Shown here piece after piece: positions 1 to 54,100 of a stretch of 64,000 bases of DNA; within the stretch, counting starts at the first letter, position 1, and each line of letters starts with the position of its first letter. The notes under the pieces were generated by a model. It saw only the letters and a list, made by a program, of their open reading frames with translations, ran no database searches and was not told the DNA's origin. This DNA is from Lingula anatina (lineage: Eukaryota > Animalia > Brachiopoda): assembly GCA_051362555.1 (NCBI GenBank), contig CM120648.1:19092587-19156586 (forward strand). Direction: 5' to 3'. A program made the position numbers and the translations under genes.

Positions 1-16
1 AAGTCAAAAACCCAAA

Positions 17-9453: not shown

Positions 9454-9467
9454 AAAAGTGGGGGGAA
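9454..9467 (+). promoter_or_regulatory. Polypurine tract of the Gypsy element
   Basis: AAAAGTGGGGGGAA immediately before TGTTGTGAT. Confidence 0.85.
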
Positions 9468-23615: not shown

Positions 23616-24075
23616 TCTACGCTGCTTTGTAATCTGGAACATAGTCCATCTTACACGTCAGACTTTGTGTGCAAATCGACTTTGTGATTTATGAAAAATG
23701 TCTGTATACTTCACTTTGTTCTTCAGCAGTGATTCAGTATCCAGATTACATACCCTTTTTATCTATCTGTCTATTTTACTCGAAGTTTGTTTTACCCTGA
23801 TATAAATAACGCACCATAGTATTTTTGGGAATTTCTCAATTCAATTCAAAAATTTAATTAATCTGCGATTTATCGACTTTTGTCATCGTGAAAATGTGAG
23901 ATTTTATATAACACACTGTTACTCTCAAGCACATATGCAGGCATCCACCTCTCTAGATTTTCTCTTGCTTCCTCTCTGCTATCACTTCACAATAAATATA
24001 ACGTCTGCAAACATCATCGTTCACCTTATCCATGAGTCCTTTTGTCAATCTGAAGCATAACATTTGTATTACCAG

Positions 24076-24306
24076 GTGAGTTTAATGAACGGCTTCAACG
24101 GTTGTGTGAAAGTGGTAAGATTCCAGTATACCGACAGCGAGTAGCTATTGTTGGACCTTACGGTGTGGGAAAGACTCATCTCGCCAAGCGCCTCATCCAT
24201 GAGGAATATATCAAAGAAGAAGATGCAAATACAACTGGCGTGAATATATACCGCCATAGGTGTGTTGTCCATAAAGCTGGCCGATCCTGTTGGATCAGAG
24301 GAAAAG
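24076..24306 (+). CDS. ROCO-HEPN gene exon: ROC GTPase G1/G2
   Basis: tttgtattaccag| ... |gtaagc, phase 1-1; RVAIVGPYGVGKTHL P-loop, NTTGV switch I. Confidence 0.88.
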
Positions 24307-24755
24307 GTAAGCAGAATATAGGAAAACGTTTGACACATATGGAATATGTTTATAAAGAATACAAAGAACAGAAGATAAGACATTTTCAATTTTACCGCAT
24401 AATTCACAATAAGGAATTATACATACATGTACGTGTGGGTGTCGAAATGTGTCCTTCCATATCTTAGTATGGTAGACGAGGGGCTGAGTGAAAAAGTACC
24501 TAAATAAGTGGTGCCTTTGTATTGTTATCAATCAATTGACATACATGACACTTTACAATCTACTACTATAGCCCATTGATTATTTTTTAACTGCGTACAA
24601 ACACGATAATTTCATTCTCTGTAAAAACACCATGCTTTATTTTACTCAATATTGAATTAAATTTTTCAACGGTGTAGCCTGATACGTACACTCAGAAAAG
24701 GTACATTTAGATGCAATGCTTGATCTAACTGTATGATCCTTCCAACTATTCTCAG

Positions 24756-24911
24756 ATGATCCAAAAGACCAGTTTGCACAAAATATGGCAATTGGAGTAC
24801 AGAATTCAGATACGTTTTGCCAGCCGGACTTAACAGTATTAGACCAAACGCCACTAGAGGAATCCCTACCAGATTCGGAAGTGAATATTAATAACATGCT
24901 GACAAATAGAG
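24756..24911 (+). CDS. ROCO-HEPN gene exon: acidic insertion within ROC
   Basis: attctcag| ... G|gtattg, 156 nt, phase 1-1, open (DDPKDQFAQNMAIGV...MLTNR). Confidence 0.72.
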
Positions 24912-25210
24912 GTATTGTACATGATTGTCTCGAATAGTTCATCTTGGTGCAATTTAAACAGATATTTGTACAATGTAGTTATTCTTCTTTTTTGCCAAGA
25001 GATTCCACCTTCTATGTTTTTTTTTTTCGTTGGCCATTCCACATATATGTGCCTTGGAGACAGCATCCCAAATTTTATTTTATATGTTTAAATTTTGTAA
25101 AGAAATTCCTTTCTAAATTCTTTTATCTTAGCCATGTTTTTGTTTACTTTAAAGTTGAGTCATTTTCTGCTAGAATGGTGTTTGATATTATTCTTCTCTT
25201 TATTCTACAG

Positions 25211-25261
25211 CCGCTCCCCCTGATGACAGTGAATTACCTGCCTCTCCTGACAAAACAGCAG
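25211..25261 (+). CDS. ROCO-HEPN gene 51-nt exon, copy 1 (AAPPDDSELPASPDKTA)
   Basis: ctctttattctacag| ... CAG|gtaaat, phase 1-1. Confidence 0.7.
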
Positions 25262-25408
25262 GTAAATAGTGCACATGTAGTAAAACAAGATTCTCGTGTA
25301 TTCTTAGCTTGCCGATTAGGTATGTGAGTGTCTACATTCTTATTTTCATCAAACTGGGACTTAGAACTCACACGGGCATGAAGCTCAGAGGTAATCAAAT
25401 TTTCTTAA

Positions 25409-25745
25409 AGCAATAATAACTCTTCGTTTTGGCCAAAAAATGAATTTTCCTGGAGTCAACAACAATTTTCCCACACTTACCAATAGTTAATGAATCTATT
25501 TTTATATTCAAAGTTAGTCCCTGGTTTTTTTTCAAAAAGTTTGGTTTTTAGTTAAAATCTCTTAAGAGATTTTACCACAGTATAGCCATCAATGGAGGTC
25601 ACCTGATCTGAAGACAAGCTCAGATATCAGAATAATAGCTATAACGGCTGTTTTCATCGTAAAACAGAATATATTATATTTCTATGAGTTATTCACAATG
25701 TTTTTATTGTGAAATATAGATTTCATACGAAGAGTTATTGTCCCT
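25409..25745. mobile_element. Kolobok-like MITE, shorter inverted copy of 14476-15095
   Basis: TTAA flanks (25405-08, 25746-49); its left end is the reverse complement of the right end of the 14476 copy. Confidence 0.75.
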
Positions 25746-31133: not shown

Positions 31134-33446
31134 ATTAGTACCACCAGCGTGTACGCTGGCGGTACTCATGGTTTTAGTCCCGACCCGTCTCGTCCGGCTC
31201 CGCCGGCTCCGTTGGCTCCGCCGGCTCCGCGTACTGGCGCCGGATACAAGTCACCGTTACCGCTTCTCCTCCTAGACCGCAAGGACCCCTGTCCCCATCT
31301 CTTGGATTTAGGTCACATATAACCTCAACTTGAACCCCCAGGTTTTTTTGTCTCAGTCGCTGCATTGACCTGGGCGTGACGCTCCTTGAAATGCACCCTT
31401 GTCAAAATTTTTGAAAATTCAATGCCAATTATCTACCCTACGGAAGGAATTATGGGAAAATTTTCTACAGACAGCTTTCCAAAAGTCATATGTGTAGATT
31501 TCAAATATGCCCTTGGATTTGACCTTTGACCTTTATTTCAAGGTCAAACGGGCCAAAATTTAAAAAAAAATGAAATTTTTTAAGAAAAAAAATATTATTT
31601 GCCCTGTTATTCAGACACCACACAGACTTAACCAATAATATTATTGGAAAGTGTTACCCTTCAGGTCATCTTTCATCTCCATGAATTTGGGGTCAATCGG
31701 TGCATTTTCTTGGGAGTAGCGGCCATAAGATGCCAAAACTGAAAACTGTCTCTAATTCGGGAACCGTTAATGCTAGAGACCCATTCTTTTTTGCATTTTG
31801 TAGAGCATGTAAAGCCCAACACTGGAAGTGGTCTCCGTTTTTTTGTATTCCAAACGGTTTTCATGTTATGCTGTATTAAAAAGTACTTTGTGGTGGCACA
31901 TTATTGTAACTCAGAATTGTAACATTTAGTCCCTTATATCTCCAAAACTGGCCGAGATAGGTCAATAGTCATTATTTAAGTTGAATAGGAAGTCATTTAC
32001 TTGCAATCTAGATGTGAGCTTGAAATTGACCTTTGACCTACTTTTCACCATGAACTGAACTTTGCAAATTATTGTTCCCTTTTATCTCCAAAACTGGCAG
32101 AGATAGGTCAATAGTTACTATTGAACTTGAATAGGAAGTCACATACTGGCAATTTAACAGTGACCTTAAAATTGACCTTTGACCTACTTTTCACCATGAA
32201 TTGAACTTTGCCAATTTTCGTTCCCTTTAATCCCCAAAACTGACAGAGATAGGTCCATAGTCACTATTGAACTTGAATAGGAAGTCATATACTGACAATT
32301 TACTATGACCTTAAATTTGACCTTTGACCTACTTTTTACCATGAACTGAACTTTGCAAATTTTTGTTCCCTTTTATCTCCAAAACTGGCAAAGATACGCC
32401 CATAGTTACTATTGAATTTGAATAGAAAGTCATTAGAGGCAATTTATTTTGACCTTAAAATTGACCTTTAACCTACTTTTCACCATGAACTGAACTTTGA
32501 AAATATTTGTTCCCTTTTATCTCCAAAACTGGCAGAGATAGGTCCATAGTTACCATTGAACTTGAATAGGAAGTCATATACTGGCAATCTAAGTGGGACC
32601 TTGAAATTGACCTTTGACCTACTTTTCATCATGAATTGAACTTTGCAGATTTTCTTTCCCTTTTATCTCCAAAACTGGCAGAGATAGGTCCATAGTTACT
32701 ATTGAACTTAAATAGGAAGTCATATACTGGCAATTTACTGTGACCTTAAAATTGACCTTTGACCGTCTTTTTACTATGAACTGAACTTAGCAAATTTTCG
32801 TTCACCTTTATCTTCAAAACTGACAGAGATAGGTCCATAGTTACTATTGAACTTGAATAGGAAGTACACTAGCAATCTGTGACCTTGAAATTGACCTTTG
32901 ACCTACTTTTTATGATGAACTGCTTTTTGCATGTTTTCTGGCCTTTAAATCTGCAAAATTGGCAAAGAAATGCTCATGGTTGCTATTGAACTTGAATAGA
33001 AATTCATATACTATGATATTGAAATTGACCTTTGATCTACTTTTTCACCATGAACTGAGCTTTGCATATTTTCTTGCCTCTCATATCTTTAAATCTAGCA
33101 GAGATGTCCCCATTGTTTCCCCTAGGTTTTATCTTTTGTCAGCATATATGCACCATTGACAACGTATTTCAAGGAAAACCAATAGGCCTTTTGTCTAGAG
33201 AATACAGGAGTGATCAAGGGTATGAAAATGCAAGTCAATTCAAAAATCTGCTTGATTGTATCATTTTTAGTCATATTTTTTTGCATATTTTGAGAACTCT
33301 TGTTGATTGCATCTTATAGAGCTTGTCAAACACCAGACTGGTGATGGTGTCCCTTTTAGGAGGGGGGCGGGGGGGTCCATACGAATGCGCTTACTCCAGC
33401 TGGTGGTACAATATCCGGAGGCGGTATCGCCTCTCTGATCCTCTAG
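31134..33446 (+). mobile_element. HINE family B copy inserted in family A without a TSD
   Basis: Complete ends; about 7 x 146-bp repeats; the flanks rejoin to AACAGTCTTATT..TTTT.CTAATAAGATAC as in the empty paralog at ~29700. Confidence 0.82.
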
Positions 33447-35486: not shown

Positions 35487-35867
35487 TACATTTGACAGAT
35501 TTGCTGTCTTGTTTTATCTGGGTACAAACACGACAATTTAATTTTCTGTAAAATAAGTCTTCTTTATATGACTGAGGATTATTTTTCTTTTTGCCAAGGG
35601 ATTCCACCTTCTATGTGTTTTTCGTTGGCCATTATACCTTATGTGCCTTGAAGACTGGGCACTTGATACCAATTATACTTGATCTTATTAGACGCATTTT
35701 CGATGTAATTTATTTATTTTTATACAATATTTATACAATATCCCAAAGTTATATGTTAAAATTTTGTAAAGAAATTCCTTTATCTTAGCCACGTTTTTGT
35801 TTACGTTAAGATTGAGTCATTTTCTGCTGGAATGGGGTTTGATATTCTTCTTCTCTTTATTCTACAG

Positions 35868-35918
35868 CCGCTCCCCCTGATGACAGGGAATCACCTGCCT
35901 CTCCTGACAGAGAAGCAG
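35868..35918 (+). CDS. ROCO-HEPN gene 51-nt exon, copy 2 (AAPPDDRESPASPDREA)
   Basis: ctctttattctacag| ... CAG|gtaagt, phase 1-1; paralog of 25211-25261 including flanking intron. Confidence 0.7.
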
Positions 35919-35978
35919 GTAAGTAGTGCACATGTAGTAAAACAAGATTCCGTCTTTTGCTCAGAATCTGCGAGTGTT

Positions 35979-36024
<46 letters not shown>

Positions 36025-36169
36025 TGACATCACAAAACAAAACATACATTTTCACACTAAACACATATTACAACATATATGCAACAGACACAAACTAACA
36101 TACAGTAGTCTCATTGGACATTAACAGCACAAGGGAGTGACAGAATACGTTGCACAAAGTAACAGTACA

Positions 36170-36770
36170 CATAACACAAACTGATTAACATCGTTACAAA
36201 TAAACAAACAAACAAACCAGCTTATTATCATATATGAGTCGCACCGGATTCTACATGTTACTACGTGCCATTTATACCACAGTCACAATATATGTTATTA
36301 TGCCGATTTTCATAACAGAAAGCATCACTCACTTACATGATCATACAGAACAAATAAGCGTACAATAGTCTCCACTTAGCTGTGAACCCAAGTACACATA
36401 ACAAGTTACTACACATGACACGATTAACATATAACGTAACATATAAACAAACAAACCAGCTTTTATCATATACAAGTCACACCGGATTCTACATATTACT
36501 AGCGTAACACAAAACACAAACTGATTAACATCGTTACATATAAACAAACAAACCAGCTTATTATCATATATGAGTCGCACCGGATTCTACATATTACTAC
36601 GTGCCATTTATACCACAGTCACAATATATGTTAATATGCCTATTGTCGGGAATAACAGAAAGCATTACTCACTTACATGATCATACAGAACAAATAAGCG
36701 TACAGTAGTCTCCACTTAGCTGTGAACTCAGGTACACATAACAAGTTGCTACACATTACAAACTAACGTA
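36170..36770. repeat. ~340-bp tandem duplication in the LINE 3' UTR
   Basis: AACACAAACTGATTAACATCGTTACA at 36173 and 36513, with continued similarity downstream. Confidence 0.8.
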
Positions 36771-36927
36771 TAACAAGTATCCATGAACAATCTGGTGCAA
36801 CACAAAAGACTTACAGTACGGACTATCGAGATGTGAACTTAGGTACGCAAAGATATTAGACATGCACAATTAGCTATGACTCCAAACAGTAAGAGGTTGT
36901 CATACCCTCGACACGTATTGTATCATT

Positions 36928-39900
36928 CTATGTAAGTCTAAGTATTAAATTGTGCAAGCATACGTACATGGCCTTAAGGTGGCCCAAATTCTGTACTGAG
37001 TCCAGATATTTTTTAGCAAATTCGACGAAAGAAATAAGTAATAATTGTTTGTTTCTGCACCTAAAGCTGTAGATATAGTATTTGATTAACATATTTAGGA
37101 CATTATACGCATCTTTGTTATTTTCTTTTTTGTCAAGAATTCCAAATATAAATGTTATTTTCTCTAAAGTCATATTCAGCTTGTCTTTGATTACATTTAA
37201 AAAGGTCTCAGTTACAGAACAATCCCATAGTACATGAATAATTGTCTCCGTCTCTTTCTCGCACCTTTTGCAAAGGGGGGTGTTAACCAAACCAGTTTTT
37301 GCAAGATAACTATTTGTCGGTAATATATGTTGATTTATTTTATACTGGAACCATTTAAATTTAGGACTGATAGGAAGGTTGAAAGGCAGTTTATTTATTA
37401 GAGACCACTCTTTGTCATTAATATTAAACAATTTATTCCAATTAATTTTGCCCTTTGAAATAGAAGCATTCTTACTAAGTATTTTATAAAAATCTTGGCA
37501 GCCCTTCTTACTTTTAAAGAAGATACTTAAATATTCTGGGAGTTTAGGGAGCATTACTTCAGATTCGTTTATATCATGCAATTTCAAGTATCGCTTAATA
37601 ATGCTTACCACCCCTTGATATTCTAGGAAGTTGGTCTGAATACCATATCGCTTATTTATTTCTTCTTGTGAGAAAAAGGTAATTGTTTTAGTGTCTTTTA
37701 TAAAGTCCCTTATTGCAGATATACCTTTATTAAACCAGTGCTTATAGTATATTACCTTACTGTCTACTCTTAGGGCTTCATTATACCAGACAGGGGTGTC
37801 CAACACGGGCTTGTTTTTCCCCCTTAACTTGTCTTCCTTAACCCTGAGTTCTTTCCATGCAAGTAACACATCCCCCTAGAACCGGTTTTGGCAAACTTTT
37901 AGACATTTATTCAAATACTCATTACCACCCACTGACAAAAGTTCGAAATTTAGATATTTAGCTACGATAATTTGCCATTTTTTCCTTTTTGTATAAATAC
38001 GTCTAATCCATGTTAATTTTAGTGATGATATCAGTGAAGGCAAGTGTATCATTTTGATACCACCTTCATCGTAATTTTTAATAATTATATCCCGCTTAAC
38101 TTTATCGATCTTTGAGTTCCACAAAAAGTGGAAGAGGTCACTCTGAAGGTCATTGATAAACCTTTGACTAGGATTCGGTAAGGATATAAACAAATGATTT
38201 AATTGGGAAATTATTAAGGATTTTATAATTATACACTTGCCGATGGGGGTGATCATTCTTCTGTTCCATCCATTAAGAATAGACTTAATTTTTACTAATT
38301 TCTTATCAAAATTAAGTTTGGGGATTTGAAATAGATTAACATGAAATTCAATTCCTAAAAGATTAAACTGGTGCTTTCCCCAATCAAGATGCATATGTGG
38401 CAAAAATTTTAAATTACTGAACTTCATACGTCCTATCCATACTATTTTGGTTTTATCTTTGTTTATTTTCAACCCTGATATTTTTGAAAATTTATCTAAT
38501 TCAATCATAAGTTCGGATAAAGACTTTTCTGAGCCATCAAGCATCACTGTCGTATCGTCTGCGTATTGAGTTAATAAAATGGGGGCGTCATCAATAGTGA
38601 TACTTTTTATATTATTGTTATTCTTGAGTATTATTGAGAGTATTTCCGCACATAAAATAAACAAATAGGGGGCTATTGGGTCTCCCTGCCTGCAGCCTCT
38701 TTTAATGTAAAAGGACTCTGAGAGATTGCCTCCTTGATTTATTGCTGCTTGTGCACCCTTATTAAAAGTATTTATCCATTTGATAATACTTTCACCAAAG
38801 TTAAAAAAAACTAGTACCCTGTCAATAAATTTCCACGACACAGCGTCAAAGGCCTTTTCGAAATCTAATAGCACTAACATTCCAGGAATATCGTTATCTT
38901 CTGTGTATTGCATAATATCGTATACAGTACGGATACTTTCCCCAATGTATCTCCCGGATATAAAACCGCATTGATCGTCTGAAATAAGTTTGCCCAGGTA
39001 TTTCTTGACTCTGGATGCTATGACTCCGGAGGCTATTTTATAGGTAACGTTTAACAAAGAGATCGGTCTCCAGTTTTTCAAGTATTGCTTGGGCTTTTCA
39101 CCCTTAGGGAGACACGTAATTACACTTTGTCGCTGTGTAATTGAAAGTTGACCAGTCGAGTAACCCCAGTTTATGGATCTAACAACAAAATTGCCGAGCT
39201 GTGACCAGAATACCTTAAAGAATTCGACAGTGAACCCATCCGAGCCTGGACTCTTATTACTTTTCATTTTTTTTCAGAATTTGGGAGGCTTCATTTAGAC
39301 TAATTATACCCTCTAGTTCACTTGACTCAACATCTGTGAGCCTCAATGGATAATTGTGCGGTAAAATTGTGCTTAAGTCAACATCAATCACTTCATTAGA
39401 CTCTGCAAATATCTGTTCGTAGTAGCATTTAATTTCTTTTAAAATTAATGTTTGGGTAGTAATTTCTTCTCCGTTATCTTTAACTATCTTAGGTATTATT
39501 TTTGAAGTGAAATTTCGGTTTTCTAGGTTTAAAAAATATTCAGTGGGTTTTTCACCCTCTTCCAGCCACTTTGTCCTGGATCTTATCATACTACCCCTTA
39601 TTTTATTTTCCCTGATGTATTTTAGTTCCTCTTGTAATCTCTCTATATTATTTGCGTTTAGATTGTAATTTCTCTCCAAATTACTTATTTCTGTTATCAA
39701 TTTTTTTTCTCTGTCGCCAACTAATTTTTTCTTATAAGATGAAACGGAAATGGATTTGCCCCTGATCTCCATAAGTAGGGTCTCAAGAAAAAGTTGATCA
39801 TTTACGGTAAACTGTATGTCAGAGTCCGGAATTGAGCAGATATTATTTAGGTTATAGACAGGAAGTGCATACTGGATTTTTATATTATTAATAAGTTGTT

Positions 39901-40699
39901 TTATATTGTCTATATATTCTATATCATCAAGCAGAGAATTATTGAATTTCCATAACCCTTTACCTTTCCTAAATGGGTTAAATTCAATATTAATCCCTAC
40001 AATGGAGTGGTCGGATCTATAACTCGATTCGATAAATGAGTTTTTAATACTTCTTACAAGGTTTTCTGTCACAAGGAAAAAATCTAGTCTCGCTTGTTTA
40101 ATGGGATTTTTTCTCCTCCAAGTATATCTCTTATAACATTCATGTTGTTCTCTATACACATCAACTAAATCATAAATTTCAATAAGTTCTAATACTTTTT
40201 TTCTTGCTTTTGGGTTGTTTATATGTCGATATGTCTGATCATAATCTATTTCTGGATTTAGAACCAAGTTGAAATCACCACAGATAATAGAGTACTCATT
40301 ATCGGTATCCTGTAGCCCCAATTCTATCTGTTTATAGAAGTCGGGAGAATCAAGATTTGGACCATATATATTGATCAATGTCACTTTTCTATCTTCTAAT
40401 AAACAATTTTGTAATAGAAAGTTACCCGCATCGTCTTTTTTTTCACTGATTACTTTAACATCGGCAGTGTTATTTAAAAGTATAGCGACACCCCTCGAGT
40501 TCGACCTGTACGAGCTAAAATAGGCCTTATATCCCCACTCAGACCTAACCCTTGATTCTATTTCAGACGTAAAATGTGTGTCTTGTAGGCATAGGATATC
40601 ATATTTCTGTTGCCTTAAATAAGAAAATATGTCTTTCCTTTTTTGTCTATCCCCAAGGCCCTGGCAGTTAACGGAAACAATCTTAATACAACTTGTCAT
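36928..40699 (-). pseudogene. LINE ORF2 (APE endonuclease - RT - CCHC), disrupted by one frameshift and one stop
   Basis: SVNCQGL, LQDTH, GDFN, RLDFFL, SDH (endonuclease); KSPGSDG, LDFEKAFD, RQGDP, QYADD (RT); CKRC..ETIIHVLWDC. Frameshift in the A run at ~39267-74; in-frame TAG at 37876-78 (likely from TGG). Confidence 0.93.
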
Positions 40700-40927
40700 T
40701 TGAATATACGGCTCTAATAAATGTCGAGGTTAGCTTTTTCCCTTATTTTGCTTTTCATCGCTCTCACCTCAAAACAACTTTTTACCACCACCAGATTGGC
40801 ACCGTTCTTCCAAATAGCTCCACCTATCATCAACATAAAAATATAATGCAATAAGTACACATTAATTCTACTAGTGGACGAGTATAAGAAAAAAGGTAAA
40901 ATTAACATAATTTGTCATTGTAGGCTA

Positions 40928-43900
40928 CCCAGACAGCCTCAATAATCTGGCCCACGTCTGGCCCAGATCTGGCAACGTCTGGCAATATCTGGGCCAGATT
41001 TTGCCAGACACTTGCCAGATCTGGGCCAAGTCTGGCAAAGTCTGGCATTTATGCCACATTTTGCCAGACACTTGCCAGATCTGGGCCAAGTCTGGCAAAG
41101 TCTGGCATTTACGCCACATTTTGCCAGATGCTGCCCAGACTTGGGCCAGATATAGTACTTTCATTTTCAATTTTTATTTTCTATTTATTTATTTTTTATT
41201 GACCAGTGAGCTGAATGCATTGAACTGACGTCATTTGATAAATTTTGATTTAATTTATCTCTCTCTTTTTTCTTCAAAGTCCCCTCCTAAGTGTGCTATT
41301 TGTTTAATTTGACTTGACATTTGAATGAATTCACTGATCTAAAACTTTTTTGGACTACTCGTTCCGCTGTTGTAAGATTCCGCTTTTTATGCTAAGCCGG
41401 TCAAGGACCCGGATGTAGCGTTTCTTAGAGTTATGGATATGAAAAAAGCACAAGCGTATCAAACTGAAACAATTTCGTTGAGTGATTTGATTCGTGGTGC
41501 GATTTATTTCGAAGGCATCAACACTGGCGACGAGGATAAACACTAGTGCAAAACTGTGAGTCAAGTTTCTTTGAAAAAAATGGAGAAAAAATGTGAAATT
41601 ACGGAATTCGAACCGTACAGAAGTCCGGAGACATTGGGTCACGCTCGACGCGATGGCTAGACAGTTTAAACTTTTCGCTGACGGAAAAAGATTGATCTTT
41701 TCAAAACCAACGAACGGCATGAATAATGAACAAAGATAGAAAATTAAAAATACATGACAAAGGAGACGCGCGCTTATGTTGTATTCAGCAGGGACAGGTG
41801 TACAACTTACAAGATATTTTCAGGACTCTCCCAAACACAGGTTAGAAACATGAATATACATAAGACAGTTAATGCTTTGAATGAAATTGGAACACCAGAA
41901 ACTGAGTATGATGAAACTGAAGTCATTTGACAAACCAAGCCAGTCTAAACATTACGAGTTTAGACATGAAAAACGAAGTAGAAACTCCCTGACTGAGAAA
42001 ACATGGAACGTTGGATCACTTTGCAAAACTCTGCAAAACTGAAACTATTATTCATGTAAATGACAGCTTTGAACATGAAAATCCAGGAGTGCATATACAT
42101 TTGGTGTGGGAACCAATGCACAGAAGACATGGAGGAAATAGAGGAGGTGTTAATCTCAGTGTATTACCAGATTCAGGTGCATATTGTAATATCATTGATG
42201 AAAATACATGGAGAATGCTGAAATCCAAGAAAAATAAATGTGGCTCTTGTGGAGGACCAGAAAACAAACAGTATTATTCATGTACACGTCTGAGAAACCT
42301 TTAAAAGTGAAGGGAACATTTGAATATGACGTAAAGGCAAGCAAAGGAAGAGACCAGTAGTAGTGAAAGGACATGGGATTTGATATGAGTTGATTAGTTT
42401 TGAGAATTTTCAGTGTGGTTTAAGGAATAAAAGTTGGAGTTCATATGCTATTCTGCAAATGTTAGAAAAGACATTTTAAAGACTGAACTGTCAATTAACA
42501 TGTTTTGAAAGGACCGTTTCTCTCCAAGAAAGGAAGGGATGTTGTGTTTGGACTTGACATTTGAATGAACTTTTGTTAACTTGGTAGAGTTACTTGTTCC
42601 ATTGTTGATTCCTTTAATAATTATAAGCTTGTCAAGGAGGCGGGTGTATCATTTCTTAGTGTTATGGATTTGAAAAAAGCGCAAGCATTGCAAACTGGTT
42701 CAATTCATTGAGTGATTTGATTCGTGATGTGATTTAATTCAAAAGCATTGATACTGGGGTTTGTTTTTGTGCACATGTAATTCTCTTTTAATTGTACATC
42801 TATATCTGTGCTGGAGTATACATATTTTTTTTTTTCAGAATTTACATGTATGTACAGTACTGTAGCCAGCATGCAAGTTGAATTGAAACAGTTACTGCAT
42901 GGTTATTTATAATTTTGTTATAACTCTCCATCATCTAAAAAAGAATGTTTTTTCATTCATTATTCAAGATTTATTCATTACAAAACTATATTCATTAGTG
43001 ATTATTATTATTAATGATATGTTTGAATTAGTTTAAAAATGACAATGTATAATATTATTTAGGTTGAGGTGTGCAAAAATATTTCCCCCTCAAATCCCCC
43101 CCCCCCCATGTACATGCATAATTAATTACAATTTTTGTAATTTGTGTTAATTCAGATTCGATGAGCAGCTTTGTGTTGAAAAAAAAATTGTTGTTATAAC
43201 TGTTTTCTTTACATGTATGTAAGTGACATTTCCTCCTGTTAAGTGTCTGTATATTTGCCTTTTTGCAGTGTGGTTTTTTTTTTTTTTTTTTTTTCAAACA
43301 TACAAATTGTTTTGTACAAAAAGACAAGGAGTGGCCCTTAATTTGTTGCATGTTAGTTGCCAGCAAGGTTATATAATGTGTAATAATTTTGTTTAGGCTT
43401 TTAGCACAGAATAAATACTTGAATCTTGAGTCTTGTATGTCTTTTTTTATAGTTATCTTATTGAATAATTAAAAATAATTAAAAAAAGAAAAAAAAAAAC
43501 AATCTGGGCCATATGTGGTCCATGTCCGGCCCTAATCTGGCCCACATCCGGCATGCCATACCTTTGCCAGATATTGCCAGATCTGGGCCAGATCTGGCCA
43601 CATGAGCAAATGTGAAATAATAAAAAAAAAAACAATCTGGGCCATATGTGGTCCATGTCTGGCCCTAATCTGGCCCATTTGAATATGATCTGGCCCATAT
43701 CTGGCCCACATCTGGCATGCCATACATTTGCCAGATATTGCCAGATCTGGGCCGACATCTGGCCATATGAGCAAATGTGGACTGGGCCAGATGTGGCAAT
43801 GTCTGGGCCAGATCTGGCCCAGACATTGCCACATCTGGCCCACATGTGGCAAGCCATACCTTTTGCCAGACATTGCCAGACGTTGCCAGATCTGGGCCAG

Positions 43901-43930
43901 ACGTGGGCCAGATCACTGAGGCTGTCTGGG
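40928..43930. mobile_element. CMC/EnSpm-like non-autonomous TIR element in the LINE inter-ORF spacer
   Basis: CCC...GGG termini with TA on both flanks; long TIR CCCAGACAGCCTCA.T.ATCTGGCCCACGTCTGGCCCAGATCTGGCAACGTCTGGCAAT; dense subterminal (TCTGG/CCAGA) repeats. Confidence 0.8.
41301..42753 (+). mobile_element. Old, internally deleted Gypsy-like LTR element
   Basis: Two diverged ~215-bp LTRs (41301-41523, 42540-42753); PBS TGGCGACGAGGAT (41525-37) complementary to the 3' end of tRNA-Ser(GCU); PPT AAGAAAGGAAGGGA (42526-39); protease relic VLPDSGAYCNII. Confidence 0.8.
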
Positions 43931-44799
43931 TATCTTATACTGTAGTGCAACAGCTTATCCGAGGTAAGGGCGTACGCCTTGAACCTCTCGCACTTACACT
44001 TGCTAGGTATTCCCTTTCACTTACACAGAATAACATGAGCTGTAAACTGTCCATTTTGACATACACACTTACACAAACGTTCACACACACACATATCCAC
44101 AATACACGAGTCATCACTACAAAATACCTAGGACGTACTACGAGTCCTAGAAAAGACAAAGCAGCGGTAACACTCACGACGCTTGCATACATCAACTAGC
44201 CGTCGGTCACGTGCACAGACACGGTGATTGTATTGTTGTTACAAACTGTAAAATATCGGTATGTTCTATTTTACACATGTCGGCTGGGACGCCAAGGGGC
44301 CCTTTTTGCGTTTGTGACATGAGCGCATAATAATAGGAGTTTAGTTCCCCGTCATTGCCTATTAAGCAATATATATATTGAGCAATGTGCACATAATCGT
44401 AGCCAAATACTCCCAATAGGTACGATGTCCCCTTCTATTCGGAGCGTACGTATACCAACCGACAATGAAAATTGAGCATTGTTGAATACATCTTATATTT
44501 GCATGTATTGTCAATAGCTTAGCTAGTAGTACCACATGTATAACAGCATACCGTATCTCGAGAAACGAGAGTGTGTGGTCATCCGGTGCCCACATCAGCA
44601 AGACGCCCCGTGAATACCTGTATTATAAAAATACATGATCAATAACTCAAAACTATATACAATTATTACTATCAAGTAAACAACCGAGACACAGATAATC
44701 TGTACATATATTTACCATAGAAGCAGCTCACCCACACAGGCGTTTGACTATATATGTATATATACATCTTATCAAACAAACTAACCTAGCCTACACGAT

Positions 44800-46032
44800 C
44801 TAATCTAATTGGAGAGCGTCAATTGCGGACTCTTGATAATAACTGAATCTCTCTGAATTTAAGTGCTGTCCAACCACCCTTGACACTACAATCAATCTAT
44901 TTTCTACCCTCTTGGCTTCTAGGAGGTTGGCCAGTGTTTTGGCTACACTTACATCGTTATTGTCATTGTAATATACTGTCCAGGCACCGCCACTTTTTAT
45001 TCTGTAGGCGTAAACAAGCGAGGCTCCGCTTACTTGGCCGCCTGCTATTATGGAGGCAAGCGCAGATTGTGCGTCTTCGACTGAATTCACTCTTGTAGAG
45101 ATTCCCATAAAGGAGTTACCCTTTGCTTTAGTTTTCTTTTCAGAGAACTTTATTTCATGTCGATGGTTTTTCCTATGTGTTGGTAGGTTTTTTAAACAGT
45201 TATCGGGCTTGCGATCATCTGGGGTATATAAGGAGTTATTTATATAGAGTTTTTCGCCCACTAACCTGTGTTTGATATTTTTTGCCCTTAATTCTTTCAT
45301 GACGGGATAGAGCGTTCTTCTTCTTTCTTCCACCTCCTTGGGATACTGGTCAGTTATCCTTATGTAGGTGCCCTTCAGATTTTTGGTATATTTCATAACA
45401 GTTCTTTTGTCATGGAATGTCGTACATTTTGCTATTATTGCCCGCGGTTTGGGTCCGTTAGTTACCGATCCAATGCGATGAACCCTATCAAAAGACACGG
45501 TTTCTTCCGCGGGGATCTTCATCTGTTGAATCAGCACCTGTCTCAGTGTATTCTCCACGTTTTCCTGCGGTCCAGTCTCGGGAATGTTATGAAATAGTAG
45601 GTTATCTCTCATGGATCTCGTTTGTAGATTTATCATTATCTGGTGATCCGTGTCGACTTGTCTTTGTAGGCTTTGTACTCTCTGCTCGCTAATATTGAGT
45701 TGTTCTCTTAGCACATTGTTCTCAGTTTCAAGAGCACTTACTTTCTCGTCCAGTTGGGTCATATTTTCATCGAGACTTTTAACCGAAATCTCAACTTGTT
45801 TGAGAGAATCTTTGAAGGTTTTTGTAATGGCGTCCAGTTTATCTTCGAACTTTGCCAAACAATCACTGATAATGTCCCTGATTTCGGTATTGTCTGTAAT
45901 GAGATATTTGTCACCCTCTTTTTTTCTTGAGCTTTTATCCATATTGCTCTCTTTGATGTGGAGTTTGGCCAACGGTGTGTTTTCTGTACTGGATGATGAA
46001 CTATGGGAAGTCCTTTGTCTTCCCCGTTTCAT
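44800..46032 (-). CDS. LINE ORF1p (coiled coil + RRM/CTD) with C-terminal IMPACT/UPF0029-like domain
   Basis: Heptad coiled coil; RSMRDNLLFHNIPE, DRVHRIG..PRAIIAK, ITDQYPKEVEERRRTLYP; tail GNSFMG..YAYRI..NDNND..NRLIVVSRVVGQHLNSERF. Confidence 0.88.
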   Translation of the reverse strand: MKRGRQRTSHSSSSSTENTPLAKLHIKESNMDKSSRKKEGDKYLITDNTEIRDIISDCLAKFEDKLDAITKTFKDSLKQVEISVKSLDENMTQLDEKVSALETENNVLREQLNISEQRVQSLQRQVDTDHQIMINLQTRSMRDNLLFHNIPETGPQENVENTLRQVLIQQMKIPAEETVSFDRVHRIGSVTNGPKPRAIIAKCTTFHDKRTVMKYTKNLKGTYIRITDQYPKEVEERRRTLYPVMKELRAKNIKHRLVGEKLYINNSLYTPDDRKPDNCLKNLPTHRKNHRHEIKFSEKKTKAKGNSFMGISTRVNSVEDAQSALASIIAGGQVSGASLVYAYRIKSGGAWTVYYNDNNDVSVAKTLANLLEAKRVENRLIVVSRVVGQHLNSERFSYYQESAIDALQLD

Positions 46033-46751
46033 TGTTTCATTGGCGCGATTTTTAAACGCACAAAAAATTCTCTTTTATCGTCACAGTACCGGGAACCCTG
46101 CCCCTTTCCGCTGTCATTTCACTTTATATTCATCCTCACACAGTCAGCCACAGTCCAACTACAACCGATCATATATAATTTAAGTATTTTATCACCGTGG
46201 CCCCAGCTTGAGTTCTACACCGCCGCCATCTTGTTCTCGTTCCGAGTGTTGTTCTTAGCTTGTCGATTAAGTATGTGAGTTCCTGCATTCTTATTTTCAT
46301 CAAACTGTATTAATAATGTTACATTAAAATTGACTATACCTTACAATTTTAATTGATTTTAATTAATGTTAAAACATTCAGTGTTTATCACCCCGTTATG
46401 TTTTGAGCTTACCCACTTGTATTCATCAGAGAGGATACATTTTTAAGAAAAAAATTTTTTTTCGCAAATTGCCGTTAAACCTTCAGAAACAGACGAAAGC
46501 TTCTAATTTATTTGATAACTGTTTCACAAAGTTAATTGACACTAAACACATTCAAATTTTGTGAATAATTACGATACTTTTTTATGCTAAAAAGTTTTAT
46601 TTTAACTGCACTGTTTATTGTACAGTCCTCATACCTCTGGGGAAGAAAACATGAGTAGAATAAGAATGTTGACGATATGTCGATGTATGAACAGTCCCTG
46701 ACAAATGAAATAAATTAGATTGAAAGCAAGTCTATAAAGATTAAGGTCTAG

Positions 46752-46782
<31 letters not shown>

Positions 46783-47016
46783 CCCCCCCCCCTTTGAAGA
46801 AGGCACATCAGCTGAAAACTCAATCGGGCGCTTGATACCAATTATACTTATTACATGCATTTGCAATCTAATTTATTTATTTTTATACAATATTTATACA
46901 ATATACTGCGGGATTAATACGATGATTTAGATGAATATGCACGCATTGCAATACATAACAATATGCATTATGCTAAAATCAGTTAGTTCGGCCATAGCTT
47001 ATTGTATTCTTCGCAG

Positions 47017-47262
47017 TGGCAGAAAGGGACCATCTAGATGATATTGACAAGGAGCTATTGGAAAAAATTGAGAAAATTGCCCGAGGAGAAGATGTGGAGC
47101 CAGAGAAACAGGTCACAATTTGGGATTTTGCAGGACAGGATGTCTACTACACCACGCACCAAACATTCCTCTCAGAGCGGATCATCTACTTGTTGGTATT
47201 CCGACTTGACCAGGACCTCGATGATAAAATCCGTGTATACAGGGGAGAGAAGACACTGAAAG
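47017..47262 (+). CDS. ROCO-HEPN gene exon: ROC G3
   Basis: ttcttcgcag| ... AAAG|gtattg, phase 1-1; TIWDFAGQDVYYTTHQTFLS ROC signature. Confidence 0.92.
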
Positions 47263-47389
47263 GTATTGTTGAGCTTTATGTATATATCTTTACATGTATA
47301 AGCTACTCAGGGCCCTCATGTAAATGGCCTGTCAGCTGTGTGTAATTTCTTTATTAAAAGACCCACATTTTTAAATCTCTCTATTGCTC

Positions 47390-47392
<3 letters not shown>

Positions 47393-47436
<44 letters not shown>
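47393..47436. repeat. (AT)n microsatellite
   Basis: Visible dinucleotide run. Confidence 0.9.
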
Positions 47437-47438
<2 letters not shown>

Positions 47439-47460
47439 CATTGAGTTTTTAGTAGTGTTA

Positions 47461-50372
47461 ATTGTACCACCAGCATTAGCGCTGGCGGTACACATGGTTT
47501 TAGTCCCGTCCGGATCGTTCCACCGGCTCCGCCGGCTCCTGCGGCTCCGCCGGACGGCTACCGTTACCACTTCTCCTCCTAGACGGTAAGGACCCCGTAC
47601 CCATCTCTTGGATTTAGGTCACCTATAATCTCAACTCGTTCCACGTAAAATTTGGGCTTTGTCCGTATTGGGGTCTAGGTGTGGCACTCATTGCAATGCA
47701 CCCTTGTCTAAAAATGGCAAAATTAAATGCTAATTATCTACCCTACGGATGGAATTATGGGAAAAATTTCTACAGACGGCTTTCCAAAAGTCATATGTGT
47801 AGATTTCAAATATGCCCTTGGATTTGACCTTTGACCTTTATTTCAAGGTCAAATGGGCCAAAATTTTCAAAAAAATTAATTTTTTTACGAAAAAAAAATT
47901 ATTTGCCCTGTTATTCAGACACCACACAGACTTAACCAATAATATTATTGGAAGTTGTTACCCTTCAGGTCATCTTTCATCTCCGTGAATTTGGGGTCAA
48001 TCGGTGCATTTTCACGGGTGTAGCGGCCATAAGATACCGAAACTGAAAACTGTCTCTAATTTGGGAACCGTTAACGCTAGAGACCCATTCTTTTTTGCAT
48101 TTTGTAGAGCATGTAAAGCCCAACACTGGAGGTGGTCTCCGTTTTTTTGTATTCCATACGGTTTTCGAGTTACGCTGTATCAAAAAGTACATATTGGTGG
48201 TGAAAGCAAAACGTGCAGTACGGTTATGGATAATAAATTTTGAACTCCAAAAAAAAAAAATATATAAGGCTTGGCAAAGCAGACAACATGTGGTCAAAAA
48301 TGACATTATTTCATCAAATTTGAACTTCTGGAACTTCAGAGCACCTCCCATTTCAAGAATTTTGACCAAAATGACCTTTTCTTTATTTTAATTAATTTTT
48401 TTCTGTAGGAAATTTATGGCACATTATGGTAACTCCAAAATTATAACATTTAGTCCCTTATATCTCCAAAACTGGCAGAGATAGGTCCAAAGTTACTATT
48501 GAAGTTGAATAGGAAGTCATATACTGGCAATCTTACTGTGACCTTGAAATTGACCTTTGACCTACTTTTCACCATGAATTGAACTTTGCAAATTTTGCTT
48601 CCCTTTTATCTCCAAAACTGGCAGAGATAGGTCCATAGTTACTATTGAAGTTGAATAGGAAGTCATATACTGGCAATCTAAATGTGACCTTAAAATTGAC
48701 CTTTGGCCTACTTTTCACCATGAACTGAACTTTATGAATTTTGCTTCCCTTTTATCTCCAAAACTGGCAGAGATAGGTCCATAGATACTATTGAACTTGA
48801 ATAGGAAGTCATATACTGGCAATCTAAATGTGACCTTAAAATTGACCTTTGACCTACTTTTCACCATGAACTGAACTCTGCTAATTTCTTTCTCTTTTAA
48901 CTCCAAACCTGGCAGAGATAGGTCCATAGTTACTATTGAAGTTAAATATGAAGTCATATTCCGGCAATTTACTGTTACCTTGAAATTGACCTTTGACCTT
49001 CTTTTCACCATGAACTGAACTTTGCATATTTTGCTTCCCTTTTATCTTCAAAACTGGCAGAGATATGTCCATGGTTACTATTGAACTTGAATAGGAAGTC
49101 ATATACTGGCAATCTTACTGTGACCTTGAAATTGACATTTGACCTACTTTTCACCATGAACTGAACTTTGCAAATTTTGCTTCCCTTTTTTCTCCAAAAC
49201 TGGCTGAGATAGGTCCATAATTACTATAGAACTTGAATAGGAAGTCATACACTGGCAATCTAAATGTGACCTTGAAATTGACCTTTGACCTACTTTTCAC
49301 CATGAACTGAACTTTGCAAATTTTGCTTCCATTTTATCTCCAAAGTTACGCTGTATCAAAAAGTACATTGGTGGTGAAAGCAAAATGTGCAGTACGGTAA
49401 TGGATAATAAATTTTGAACTCCAGAAAAATAAATCATAAGGCTTGGCAAAGCAGACAACTCATGGTCAAAAATGACATTATATCATCAAATTTGAACATC
49501 TCGAACTTCAGAACACCTCCTATTTCAAGAATTTTGACCAAAATGACCTTTTCTTTATTTTAATTAATTATTTCTGTAGGAAATTTATGGCACATTATGG
49601 TAACTACAAAATTATAACATTTAGTCCCTTATATCTCCAAAACTGGCAGAGATAGGTCCATAGTTACTATTGAAGTTGAATAGGAAGTCATATACTGGCA
49701 ATCTTACTGTGACCTTGAAATTGACCTTTGACCTACTTTTCACCATGAACTGAACTTTGCAAATTTTGCTTCCCTTTTATCTCCAAAACTGGCAGAAAGG
49801 TCCATAGTTACTATTGAAGTTGAATAGGAAGTCATATACTGGCAATCTTAATGTGACCTTAAAATTGACCTTTGGCCTACTTTTCACCATGAACTGAACT
49901 TTGCAAATTTTGCTTCCCTTTTATCTCCAAAACTGGCAGAAAGGTCCATAGTTACTATTGAAGTTGAATAGGAAGTCATATACTGGCAATCTTAATGTGA
50001 CCTTAAAATTGACCTTTGGCCTACTTTTCACCATGAACTGAACTTTACGAATTTTGCTTCCCTTTTATCTCCAAAACTGGCAGAGATAGGTACTATTAAA
50101 CTTGAATAGAAGTCATATACTGGCAATTTACTGTGACCTTGAAATTGACCTTTGACCTACCTTATGATGAATTCACTTTGATTGTACCATTTTAAGTTAT
50201 GTATATTTTTTGCATATTCTGAAAATTCTTGTTGATTGCATTTTTACAGCTTGTCAAGCACAAAACTGGTGGCTGTGTCCCTTACTTTGTGTATGTGGGG
50301 GTCTATACGAATGCGCTTGCTCCAGCTGGTGGTACAATATTTGGAGGCGGTATCGCCTCTCTGATCCTCTAG
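47461..50372 (+). mobile_element. HINE family B copy with expanded 146-bp array
   Basis: Same termini (GTACCACCAGC ... hairpin-CTAG); TATCTCCAAAACTGG recurs at 48461, 48607, 48753; internal duplication 48170-48460 / 49345-49630. Confidence 0.82.
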
Positions 50373-50582
50373 TTTTAAATGGTTCCGATGAGTGTTTTAG
50401 ATTTTAATATTGTAGTAATTTTAAGGATTTTAGTTATATTATCCATTGTAAGCCGCCCAATAAGAAACATTATTATTATTATTATTATATTAATTGGCGC
50501 TATTTTTTAGCAATGCTGAGGAGAAAACACTGATTAATATTCATCTTTGCAATTACCTCAAGGCTTTATATACATTTTTCAG

Positions 50583-50707
50583 AGTTTATTATGTTTTGGT
50601 TAAACTCAATCCATATGCACACTATTGGAAAATTGAGGGAAGAAGACAAAAATGCCATGCCATACGTCTTGATTATTGGAACTCATAAGGACATGTTATG
50701 CGCACAG
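50583..50707 (+). CDS. ROCO-HEPN gene exon: ROC G4
   Basis: catttttcag| ... CAG|gtgaaa, phase 1-0; FWLNSIH and VLIIGTHKD. Confidence 0.9.
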
Positions 50708-51085
50708 GTGAAAACGCTTTTCTTATCACAATTATTCAATTACTACCATACTTATTCTATGTATAATTTGTATCCCTTCAACCATATCACGATTCCTGAC
50801 GAGTGACTTAATTATTTAGAAACTTTTCACTATGTGACTATTTGTGGATGGCATGATTTAATGTTGGGGGAAAAGGGTGTTCCTTGCCCCCTGTACTCCA
50901 TCCTAATTTTATATGTTCATTGCAACATACCCCATTTCTCAACTTGAACAAAGTGGACTATATCATATACACACATACACATACACACACCCCGGTAAAT
51001 GTTTTCCTTTACACTGACAATTTAACATTATTATATGGTAATGAACAACAACTACAAAAATGTCTTAACTAGTTTTTATTCATAG

Positions 51086-52268
51086 GGCGACGTTGAAAAG
51101 ATTTTTGATAAACTCAAGAAGTGTCTCGACGACAGGCAGGTACTCAAGGACCACGTCTACCGATATTTTGCCATAAGCAACTTGGCCGAAGATGATGGGG
51201 AGTTCGCTGAAATAAAAAAAGCGATCGAAGATTTGTGCGGTTATAGCAGCAACAGTATTGCTACCGTTCAACATCTTTCAGTGAATTGGATTAAATTGGA
51301 AATGAATTTGGCAGAGAAGAGTGAAGAAACCCCCATCATATCTATTGAAAAACTGAGGGAAATGGCAAAAAGGGTAGGACTCCCTGATGAAGAATTACAA
51401 GAAAAGTTCATTCCTTACCATCACCGTCAAGGCGACATCCTACACTTCAAAGTTGATGGACTGGAAAATGTCGTCATAATAGATCCACTTTGGTTAGCAG
51501 ATGTGTTTTCTGCCATCATGACCAATGCCAGCAGTCAACCTGGAGGCAGTCACTTTGATCTCCTGAAAGACGATCTGAAAAGAGGAGTGCTCAATGAGGA
51601 GGTATTTGATGAATATCTAAAACAAATCAAAATGGCCGAAAAAAAGACTGAAATCATTCAACTTATGCTGCATTTCGACTTGATGTTAGAAATATCCCAA
51701 GCAGTTGAAAACCCTCTGCCCGGGTCTGGAAAGAGAAGATTTGTCGTGCCCAGTATGCTGGTATCCAATAACAGTGTAAATAACGCCTTGTCTGAGACGG
51801 ATCCACAGAAATATTTGCTTATCGCATTCCCTCACATTCTGTTTCCTACCGGGTTGTTTCATCTTCTGATCATCCGTCTTCTTAGGAAGTATAGAGCTCA
51901 GGAATATAAACATAACATTCCAGTTGTTGGGTTTGACCATGCCTCCTTCCGTTTGGGAGACGAACAGTCGGTGCTCCATCTCGCCATTGAAGAAAGGGCC
52001 ATGAGAATGATGATAACAAACGCTACTGGAAACAAACCAAAACCTGACATATACTCCAATGCACGGGAAACCGTTGAAAAAGAACTGTCAACTCTTCGGG
52101 ACACGTACTGTCCCAGGATGCAGTTAGGCTTTTGCATTCGGTTAAAAGACAAAGGAAAAGATATTCCAATAAAAGCAGAAGACGTCCAAGAAAACGATGA
52201 GATATGTAGATCTGTAGAGGGCACTGAAATGCCAATCGATGTGACACCGTATCGTGTTTGGTTTTCAG
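51086..52268 (+). CDS. ROCO-HEPN gene exon: end of ROC + COR domain
   Basis: ttattcatag| ... TCAG|gtaagc, phase 0-1; FAISN, WIKLE, YHHRQGDILHF, VIIDPLWLADVF, FVVPSML, PTGLFHLL. Confidence 0.92.
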
Positions 52269-53004
52269 GTAAGCATTAAAATTTTAGGTAGTTTTGCTGT
52301 GAACAGACATTGTTCCTGAATATAATTAGGGGTAATGTAGTCATTGAAATCGGTGTTAAACTGATGTAAATGCAACTAATCATATTGGGTGATGTACTAA
52401 GATTTACATGAAGAGAATTAATATTTCAAATTGTTGCCAATAAACCAAACTTTATATATTTTAAAATAATGTAACTTGATAAATACCCAAAGGTATTTTT
52501 TATAATCCCCGAAAATGATATATCAGCATTTTTCCCCTTGGCAAATTTTGCCCATCGCCTTTGTTAGAACAATATAAATATCTCCTACAAAATCATGCAA
52601 TTTATATTTTAATCATTCCAACAATATGAGTTTTACATGGGCATCAACGTCTGTGTGAGGGTAAGACTGTTGCAATTCTATGTACCGAACATTTTTCATA
52701 TAAACTGTCCCATATTAGATTTATTACCCAGCCATGCACGTGGCTAGAATTGTTTTAACTTCTAATTTAAAAACAAATGCCCAAGCATATTTGGAAAACA
52801 TTTAATGACAAAAATAAATACTATGCCCTGGTCGTATTTTGAGAATTTACCTGCGGTGCAGAAGGTAAATGTACAGCAGGTTACCTTTTGCTCACAACAC
52901 ATATCTATTAATAAGTTTCTTCATACTTAAATTACATGTATATTATTAATTGCTAATTATGGTTCATCATGTGCATATTCTTGTAATCCTTCTTATTCTT
53001 ACAG

Positions 53005-53037
53005 TGAGTGCACAGGCAGTACAAGCAAGTGATCCAG
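53005..53037 (+). CDS. ROCO-HEPN gene 33-nt linker exon (VSAQAVQASDP)
   Basis: tcttattcttacag| ... CCAG|gtaatt, phase 1-1. Confidence 0.65.
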
Positions 53038-53342
53038 GTAATTTTGTATTTGGTAGTGCTTAGCTTAGGCTAAGAAGTACAAGCATTATTCTTATTTTTA
53101 CTTCTATTTTTATCTTTTAACTTACAAATCTTCAATATAAAGAAATAGCGTATTGTTACTAGCATGTACCCCCTGTTCATATGACTACATTTCACTGACT
53201 ACATATTTCTCCCATAATGCAGTGGTGGTTGCCGTATATTTTACACAAACACACACACACACACTAGTATACTACTCTATCTCTCTTTCCCTATAAAATT
53301 CTTGTTCAAAAAGCATTGATCATTATCATATGTTTCTATTAG

Positions 53343-54100
53343 TAGGTGCGAATGCCCCAGATGTGTCACAGAGGTTTGCAAGGCTGAGTTATCTCGTTGT
53401 TGAACTTGGAACAAAAGTCATAAGAACTTTCTTTCTCAAGGATGTTGTTAGGCCTAGCATCACTAATGGTGAGCACATCAGTGATAAAGATGCAGTGCTT
53501 CAGTTTTTTGGTAAGCATGACGTGATAAGGGAACTTGAGAAACTCAAGAAAACAAAAGTCATATATGCTTCTCAGTGGAATCTGTTGTACCCTGCCTCTG
53601 GTCATACAGATGTGGAAACGTTTGACATTACATTGCTGGTGTTATTGATAAGAAATCTTCACCCAGACAAAGCCAACCTGAAATGGTCAGCGCTCAAAGA
53701 AAATACCACTTTACCTTCCTCTCCACAAACAACACAAGGTTTCATCGACCACATCCAACGGCTTAAGAATGTCAGGAACTATATACAGCATTCCGCCACA
53801 TTTGGGATCCAAGACATGGAGAAATTCTGCACAAATTGGGAAATCGCCTGTGTTTCTGTTCTAGCACTTGGTGCAGATCCAAAGGAAGTGAAAAAGATAC
53901 AGGAATTCAACTTTAGCAAACAGGAGATAGATACAATAGTGTGCGAAATACGCAGCTCGGCCGAAGATAACAAACGGCATTTCGACAGCAGATTTGACAG
54001 GCTTGAATTACTAATATTTTCCTTTGTACGTGATGTTCGCTTTGCCATCTTCTTTGTCGTCCTCATTGCGTTAGCCATAAATTACCAGTGGTGGATTTAG
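53343..54100 (+). CDS. ROCO-HEPN gene last exon: DZIP3-type HEPN domain + C-terminal TM helix
   Basis: TAGTAG tandem acceptor, phase 1; FARLSYLVVELG, QWNLLYP, FDITLLVLLIRNL, RLKNVRNYIQH (Rx4H at 53774-53791); hydrophobic tail FAIFFVVLIALAINYQWWI-stop. Confidence 0.87.

Follow-up and report, generated by a model that had tools for sequence, protein, structure and literature searches.

Bacteria encode LRR-AP-GTPase-COR proteins with at least 24 effectors, which Kaur et al. (2021) predicted to counter invaders (PMC8195603), and supplement 6 of that paper includes two Thioflexothrix proteins composed of LRR, AP-GTPase, COR and HEPN. HEPN domains of the DZIP3 type are recorded as fusions to TPR, RING, ankyrin, CARD, NACHT, Death and LRR modules in a 2013 survey whose main text contains neither 'Roc' nor 'NHL' (PMC3710099). 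More than 50 HEPN-NACHT proteins were reported from the pearl oyster (PMC9646362), TIR-ROCO proteins from Aplysia and a ROC-caspase combination from Owenia (PMC11463336). In the literature searched, subscription papers, figures and some supplements aside, we came across neither an animal ROC-COR-HEPN protein nor an animal NHL-ROC-COR protein. Here we describe a gene of the brachiopod Lingula anatina that joins NHL, ROC, COR and HEPN modules. It lies on a stretch of 64,000 nucleotides, hereafter the window (assembly GCA_051362555.1, contig CM120648.1, 19,092,587 to 19,156,586, forward strand; positions below are counted from its first letter). The protein architecture is NHL-ROC-COR-HEPN(DZIP3)-tail in one spliced chain, which is richer than the ROC-COR-HEPN-tail protein of a preliminary description of this DNA, and the gene belongs to a real, transcribed family of the sensor-NTPase-effector kind whose function is predicted.

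The Lingula protein shares features with several described systems and differs from each of them. Like the prokaryotic AP-GTPase (Roc)-COR proteins, it has a variable repeat sensor, a Roc-COR unit and an exchangeable C-terminal effector, with function predicted in both cases; unlike them, it is encoded by a spliced animal gene and carries NHL instead of LRR, a DZIP3-type HEPN and a putative tail anchor (PMC8195603). With the NACHT-HEPN proteins of bivalves (PMC9646362) and Aplysia (PMC9334734) it shares a tripartite NLR-like layout, the same HEPN family with Rx4-6H, expansion and variability. In those proteins, however, the switch is NACHT, the HEPN is N-terminal and the sensors are LRR, TPR or WD40, and the relevant passages of the two papers do not mention ROC-COR or an anchor together with HEPN. 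The brown-algal LRR-ROC-COR candidates, proposed as immune receptors, are likewise ROCO proteins with a diversifying N-terminal sensor, but as described there they diversify by LRR exon cassettes and carry no enzyme effector, whereas the Lingula sensor is one large NHL exon with point changes on one face (PMC11378527). RNase L and IRE1 resemble it as animal HEPN RNases with a nucleotide-binding switch, IRE1 also being membrane-bound (PMC3710099; RNase activity is predicted for the Lingula protein). They combine a kinase or pseudokinase with KEN, and neither kinase nor KEN gave a Pfam match in the seven exon stretches scanned, so that the RNase L/IRE1-like effector of the preliminary description holds as an analogy and not in domain content. 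The same domain order and an intact RN-x3/4-H occur in two hypothetical proteins of unionid mussels, Sinanodonta KAL3892357.1 and Potamilus KAK3592281.1. These differ from the Lingula protein in their COR (26-28% identity), in their separate branch and in having no hydrophobic tail, and their NHL is a weak call (2e-5) in one protein and a sequence resemblance in the other.

One spliced chain from propeller to tail

The nine exons on the + strand, all bounded by AG and GT, extend from 24076 to 54100 exactly as first described and contain 942 codons open to the stop; in RNA the acceptor at 53343 of a NAGNAG is chosen, resulting in 943 codons. Among random AG-started segments matched in length and phase, 0 of 1500 lacked a stop at 1183 nucleotides, and 0.7% did so at 758 nucleotides. 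Seven different RNA runs were aligned as two sets of four, on 50300-55400 and 23640-25300, and every junction was recovered in reads. In runs X4, X5 and X6, respectively, the join 24306>24756 was found in 36, 11 and 81 reads, 24911>25211 in 34, 11 and 64, and mini-exon to mini-exon in 16, 15 and 48 (aligned to one copy), while 25, 16 and 71 loose read ends connect the mini-exon to 47017. In X4, the 3' end of exon 47017-47262 corresponds to 45 loose read ends located before 50581, supporting 47262>50583. The joins 50707>51086 (40 reads) and 52268>53005 (8 reads, and 7 more with two other letters) come from X4 only. ROC through COR to HEPN is thus one splice chain, for which the evidence is a chain of junctions rather than a single molecule. 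Exon depth in X4 was 20-60 on the sense strand over 50300-55400; X1, X2 and X7 had a depth below 5 with no joins listed on this segment, and X3 had 5 reads in total on 23640-25300. All three runs from study P2 showed strong expression and all four from studies P1 and P3 almost none, suggesting that the gene is tissue- or condition-specific.

The 5' end of the chain as first described proved incomplete. Exon 24076 begins in phase 1 without an ATG and is spliced to an upstream NHL exon ending at 10332 (12, 7 and 77 reads in X4, X5 and X6, with loose ends before 24074 matching 10301-10330). The window exon scores 9e-14 with Pfam NHL and is 84-89% identical to proteins P0008-P0011. Two RefSeq models, P0008 and P0011, independently fuse NHL to this ROC, and their G1 exon is 96-97% identical to that of the window. 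The reads and these models rule out that the NHL exon belongs, as terminal exon, to a TRIM gene of its own. P0011 (NHL-ROC) and P0198 (COR end-HEPN-tail) are consecutive loci on a contig whose length is 45,860 bases in both cases, indicating that one gene has apparently been divided by annotation. An intact NHL region is present in RefSeq models that span only part of the gene each, and this splitting among database models hides the architecture in annotations. The intact protein would comprise about 1250 residues (117 + 1137).

The domain calls of the preliminary description were borne out by profile searches, which gave Roc, COR-A and HEPN_DZIP3. Pfam Roc matched in two exons (4e-6 and 2e-8, one at and the other above the cut-off), and the ROCO features GPYGVGKT (G1), WDFAGQ (G3) and THKD (G4) are all present, COR following immediately upon ROC within one chain. 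A profile match to LRRK2 reached 4e-40, and a structure model of the paralog P0001 matched the Roc-COR of CtRoco (E 8e-15), LRRK2 and LRRK1, COR alone with a TM of 0.76 of the target. In place of a NACHT or NB-ARC ATPase the scan gave P-loop matches below threshold (E 0.015-0.023), and the switch is ROC-COR. With the NHL propeller as putative variable sensor the protein is NLR-like: it would work like an NLR, but is not an NLR.

HEPN_DZIP3 (PF18738) was detected at E 3e-19, with 69.7 bits against a cut-off of 27. HEPN RNases are characterized by Rx4-6H with a polar residue after R, located at a helix end, and by an upstream E-x3-[KR] (PMC3710099); in the Lingula protein RNYIQH lies at the end of helix 129-152 and ELGTK is present in all Lingula copies. 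All seven RefSeq loci with this HEPN, some of which may be alleles assembled apart, keep RN-x3-H and ELGTK, and the Rx4H predicted to be conserved is found in these 7/7 loci and in 17/17 Pfam-confirmed HEPNs of ROC-COR relatives. A model of HEPN and tail (predicted local distance difference test, pLDDT, 73) is all helical, with a long helix running to the tail. The three best VIA fold matches were AbiF (Z 7.8, root mean square deviation 4.7, 154 aligned) and Csm6 twice (Z 7.5, 2.7, 112; Z 6.7, 3.6, 117), both of which are HEPN RNases. A PDB sequence search with the HEPN exon gave nothing significant. The active site of HEPN RNases is a composite of two domains; complex prediction of two HEPN copies (last exon residues 1-200, no alignment) scored 0.06, which weighs neither way. 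The terminal 19 residues have the highest hydropathy in the chain (2.0-2.2; the next, 1.9, is inside COR), and form a single hydrophobic helix at the extreme C-terminus, as expected of a tail anchor; the hydrophobic tail occurs in six of the seven Lingula loci. The membrane tail anchor first described is retained as a terminal hydrophobic helix of the Lingula subfamily, to which it is confined. Positions of all features are given in Table 1.

Table 1. Features of the NHL-ROC-COR-HEPN gene and of the upstream retrotransposon in the window
Feature	Position	Strand	Details
Gypsy-type long terminal repeat (LTR) retrotransposon	1-9752	+	5' end beyond window; abuts NHL coding sequence mid-exon
Gypsy gag	2-1627	+	Open reading frame (ORF)
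Gypsy protease/reverse transcriptase (RT)	1603-3651	+	ORF, Pfam
Gypsy RT-RNaseH-integrase-PHD-TatD	3543-8684	+	ORF, Pfam
Polypurine tract	9454-9467	+	
Candidate 3' LTR	9468-9752	+	285 base pairs, TGTT...AACA ends
Surviving 3' part of NHL beta-propeller exon	9753-10332	+	193 codons, about blades 3-6; phase-1 donor GTGAGT at 10333
ROC exon	24076-24306	+	G1 P-loop GPYGVGKT at 24153; candidate G2 threonine (NTTG) at 24228
ROC insert exon	24756-24911	+	Acidic, likely flexible
Mini-exon copy 1	25211-25261	+	51 nucleotides, phase-1, Pro/Asp/Ser-rich
Mini-exon copy 2	35868-35918	+	51 nucleotides, phase-1, duplicated together with flanking intron
ROC exon with G3	47017-47262	+	WDFAGQ; DFAGQ at 47124
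ROC exon with G4	50583-50707	+	THKD at 50681
ROC end and COR exon (COR-A, COR-B)	51086-52268	+	Phase-1 donor; Pfam COR-A 3e-22
Linker exon	53005-53037	+	33 nucleotides, phase-1
Last exon	53343-54100 (from 53346 in the 942-codon chain)	+	HEPN_DZIP3, long helix, hydrophobic tail 54041-54097, stop
HEPN motifs in last exon	RNYIQH 53774-53791; ELGTK (E-x3-K)	+	Pfam 3e-19
3' untranslated region	54101-55090	+	Stranded reads, depth 7-23 in X4; AATAAA at 55106 and 55189

The mini-exon was duplicated with its flanks (25080-25293 and 35749-35950, 88% identical), and both copies are present in RNA; the RNA reads carry mini-exon variants, indicating that the length of the ROC insert differs among copies. 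At position 53366, five of seven X4 reads and most RefSeq paralogs have 12 additional in-frame bases that the window copy lacks.

A variable propeller in a module-swapping family

The best solved match of the propeller was the NHL domain of TRIM2/TRIM3 (7qrw, E 3e-33), and its identity with TRIM-NHL proteins of Lingula reaches about 76%, suggesting that it was taken from the TRIM family. Although the propellers are alike, the close NHL-ROC relatives (P0008-P0012) differ from TRIM2/TRIM3 and the Lingula TRIM-NHL proteins in having a short leader without RING or B-box, as far as the RefSeq models, which may be incomplete, are concerned, and in a top face that is variable and not conserved. The top-face loops, those before strand a and after strand b, form the ligand face of NHL domains and, in Brat, the RNA-binding face (PMC4015489). 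Among four close full-length relatives, 20 of 36 top-face positions had three or more states, as did none of the 24 positions of the a-b turns and 6 of the 203 remaining ones (p 2e-15); when the window copy was included, 20 of 31 top-face and 3 of 161 other positions were variable. In this family the face has many aromatic and basic residues but lacks conservation, which makes it unlike a fixed RNA-binding site. TRIM2/3, for their part, are described as sharing no conservation with the surfaces of LIN41 or Brat (PMC5908797).

With E 1e-10 as the limit, a search of 1.84 billion representatives for relatives returned 1040 proteins. Of 145 new representatives, 51 were scanned in full with Pfam together with selected others, the remainder being screened by local hidden Markov model (HMM) only; the 51 relatives scanned fully revealed Death in 22, HEPN in 7, TIR in 4, DED in 2, caspase in 2 and GT4 in 1. 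The local HMM placed HEPN in 19 of 152 proteins, and Pfam confirmed 17 of them (11 C-terminal, 6 N-terminal), all with RN-x3/4-H; the unconfirmed P0125 and P0173 were dropped. Eight of the C-terminal cases are from unionid mussels, two of them with an N-terminal propeller-like region, which in one of the two has an NHL match. Versions with the HEPN at the N-terminus were seen in Nematostella, Mytilus and Mercenaria. Trees were built on 132 of 153 rows and then on 38 of those. Uniting the Lingula and mussel branches was rejected (approximately unbiased test, p 1e-4; 38 rows, with groups chosen once a first tree was available and with long branches present), suggesting that the propeller-ROC-COR-HEPN design arose twice. 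This test was run on whole clades, as a test of a single HEPN clade is trivial when the caspase-bearing P0002 nests among HEPN genes. ROC-COR-caspase fusions were also seen in Lingula and Owenia (P0002, P0006 and P0051) and in P0070, one of the four with a Bcl-2 domain, and P0084 of Branchiostoma is a ROC-COR-GT4 protein.

Within Lingula, the window protein and P0001, P0002, P0003, P0004 and P0005 form one ROC-COR branch with a support of 100. A C-terminal HEPN is found in the window copy, P0001 and P0003, while P0005 has its HEPN at the N-terminus, P0002 carries a caspase at 74% COR identity and P0004 has neither HEPN nor caspase. Conversely, the same NHL module (75-89% identical) fronts the distant ROC-COR of P0009 and P0047 (27-29% in COR) and also P0010, a protein with a weak CARD match. 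The borders of the window modules are phase-1 introns, which fits exon shuffling. Together, the data show the splice chain, its transcription, the domains with intact GTP-binding and Rx4H motifs, the top-face variability and the swapping of modules among paralogs.

Proposed function and the state of the window copy

We lean towards the view that intact copies are membrane-tethered intracellular immune receptors in which the variable propeller switches a predicted HEPN ribonuclease through ROC-COR. The tail would insert in an organelle membrane, leaving the remainder cytosolic; an invader-derived ligand on the propeller would shift the ROC-COR dimer to another nucleotide state and another geometry; this change would align two HEPN domains into one active site; and viral or host RNA would be cut near the membrane, leading to a translation halt or cell death. 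The immune or cell-death setting put forward in the preliminary description is supported by the family context. Its GTP gating by dimerisation is doubtful, because in CtRoco the empty and GDP-bound forms are dimers and the GTP-bound form is a monomer (PMC5714945), and we prefer a pre-formed membrane dimer, held by stalk and tail, that would be activated by a change of shape.

Several points, this behavior of CtRoco among them, weigh against the receptor reading. RNase output, ligand binding, membrane localisation and immune role of the receptor are predictions. In the gene structure, the join 53037>53343 is supported by 3 reads in one run (X4), four of the seven runs (X1, X2, X3, X7) had almost no expression, and no database model has the whole architecture including the tail. 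The reads come from other samples and are mostly 90-99% identical to the window, and no read spans the whole gene; the reads therefore derive from other alleles and probably paralogs too. The top-face loops were defined by motif after the sequences had been seen, and variability was scored on amino-acid states of 4-5 proteins with no codon tests. The HEPN fold matches, with Z below 8, are in the tool's range for common helical arrangements, Foldseek with the HEPN model gave no hit at E 0.001, and the titles and abstract openings of the papers found on DZIP3, HEPN and RNase show no assay for the family of this HEPN. P0003 lacks the tail, as do all 8 mussel proteins compared.

A further reading concerns the window copy itself, which has probably been disabled by an LTR element within its NHL exon; it would be a dead or crippled allele or paralog, and the reads would derive from intact copies in other animals. 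We consider this quite likely, and it agrees with the reading favoured for the family as a whole. The purine tract and the 285-base-pair segment with TGTT...AACA ends stop exactly where NHL homology starts (9747-9753), all three frames upstream of the homology contain stops, the first 116-117 or so N-terminal residues of the relatives had no match anywhere within the window, and the reads diverge from the window at many sites. On the other hand, all 1137 codons 3' of the insertion are open, which suggests that the insertion is recent, and an in-frame ATG 20 codons past the LTR together with a weak AG at 9757-9758 would allow a shortened product; the 5' LTR and the beginning of this exon fall beyond the window. 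As a native acceptor the AG at 9757-9758 was ruled out, since the homology of the relatives extends upstream in frame.

It is less probable, though worth weighing, that the protein is an RNase switch with a trigger other than a pathogen, either membrane stress or RNA quality control as in IRE1, or recognition of self and non-self among conspecifics. The endoplasmic reticulum is the predicted site of action of membrane-anchored HEPNs (PMC3710099), TRIM-type NHL domains bind host RNA (PMC5908797, PMC4015489) and expression differed strongly between runs, all consistent with such a trigger. A housekeeping role, however, does not predict multiple loci, top-face variability and swapped effectors, whereas allorecognition would fit all three. 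We find it rather improbable that the HEPN is an RNA-binding or scaffolding module that signals via partners without cutting RNA: the lack of an assay found for this HEPN family, the modest fold matches and the many relatives with Death, DED or TIR adaptors at the same position are in line with it, but the motif residues R, N and H persist in proteins of Lingula, bivalves and cnidarians that share about 20-30% identity and are the residues required for catalysis in KEN and PrrC (PMC3710099).

This family combines, in a single chain, a switch and a predicted nuclease with a sensor whose variable face is defined, which makes activity, gating and ligand each testable with point mutants. The lophotrochozoan route from detection of an intracellular invader to RNA destruction is poorly known, and DZIP3-type HEPN is expanded in these animals. 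ROC-COR would also gain a direct enzymatic read-out besides kinase, which bears on how LRRK2-type switches transfer their signal. RNase L depends on 2-5A (2',5'-linked oligoadenylate) made by OAS. As a more tentative extension, Lingula may make NLR-equivalent receptors by shuffling phase-1 modules around ROC-COR, the member described here being a pathogen sensor and ribonuclease in one chain, with a TRIM-derived propeller in an arms race and RNA destruction at the membrane that would need no second messenger; the design may have appeared separately in mussels and, with LRRs, in bacteria.

The window contains other repeated elements. In the Gypsy-type retrotransposon the RT region shifts frame at about 3543-3651, and the pol frame continues past the integrase with no stop, taking in a PHD finger (E 3e-8) as well as a TatD DNase domain (E 4e-27). 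Intron 4 is filled by an element of the long interspersed nuclear element (LINE) type on the - strand (35971-46256), with a poly(A) tail at 35983-36022, endonuclease-RT frames at 40729-36931, an ORF1-like frame at 46074-44803, a 14-base target-site duplication at 35971 and 46243, and other insertions between its frames. An open frame of 1318 codons at 60047-64000 on the - strand presumably represents a BEL/Pao retrotransposon pol, which it resembles. Satellite arrays with units of 161, 146 and 67 bases are located in introns and flanks at 12434-13406, 15741-16386, 19308-19911, 31930-33073, 48454-50160 and 57674-58502.

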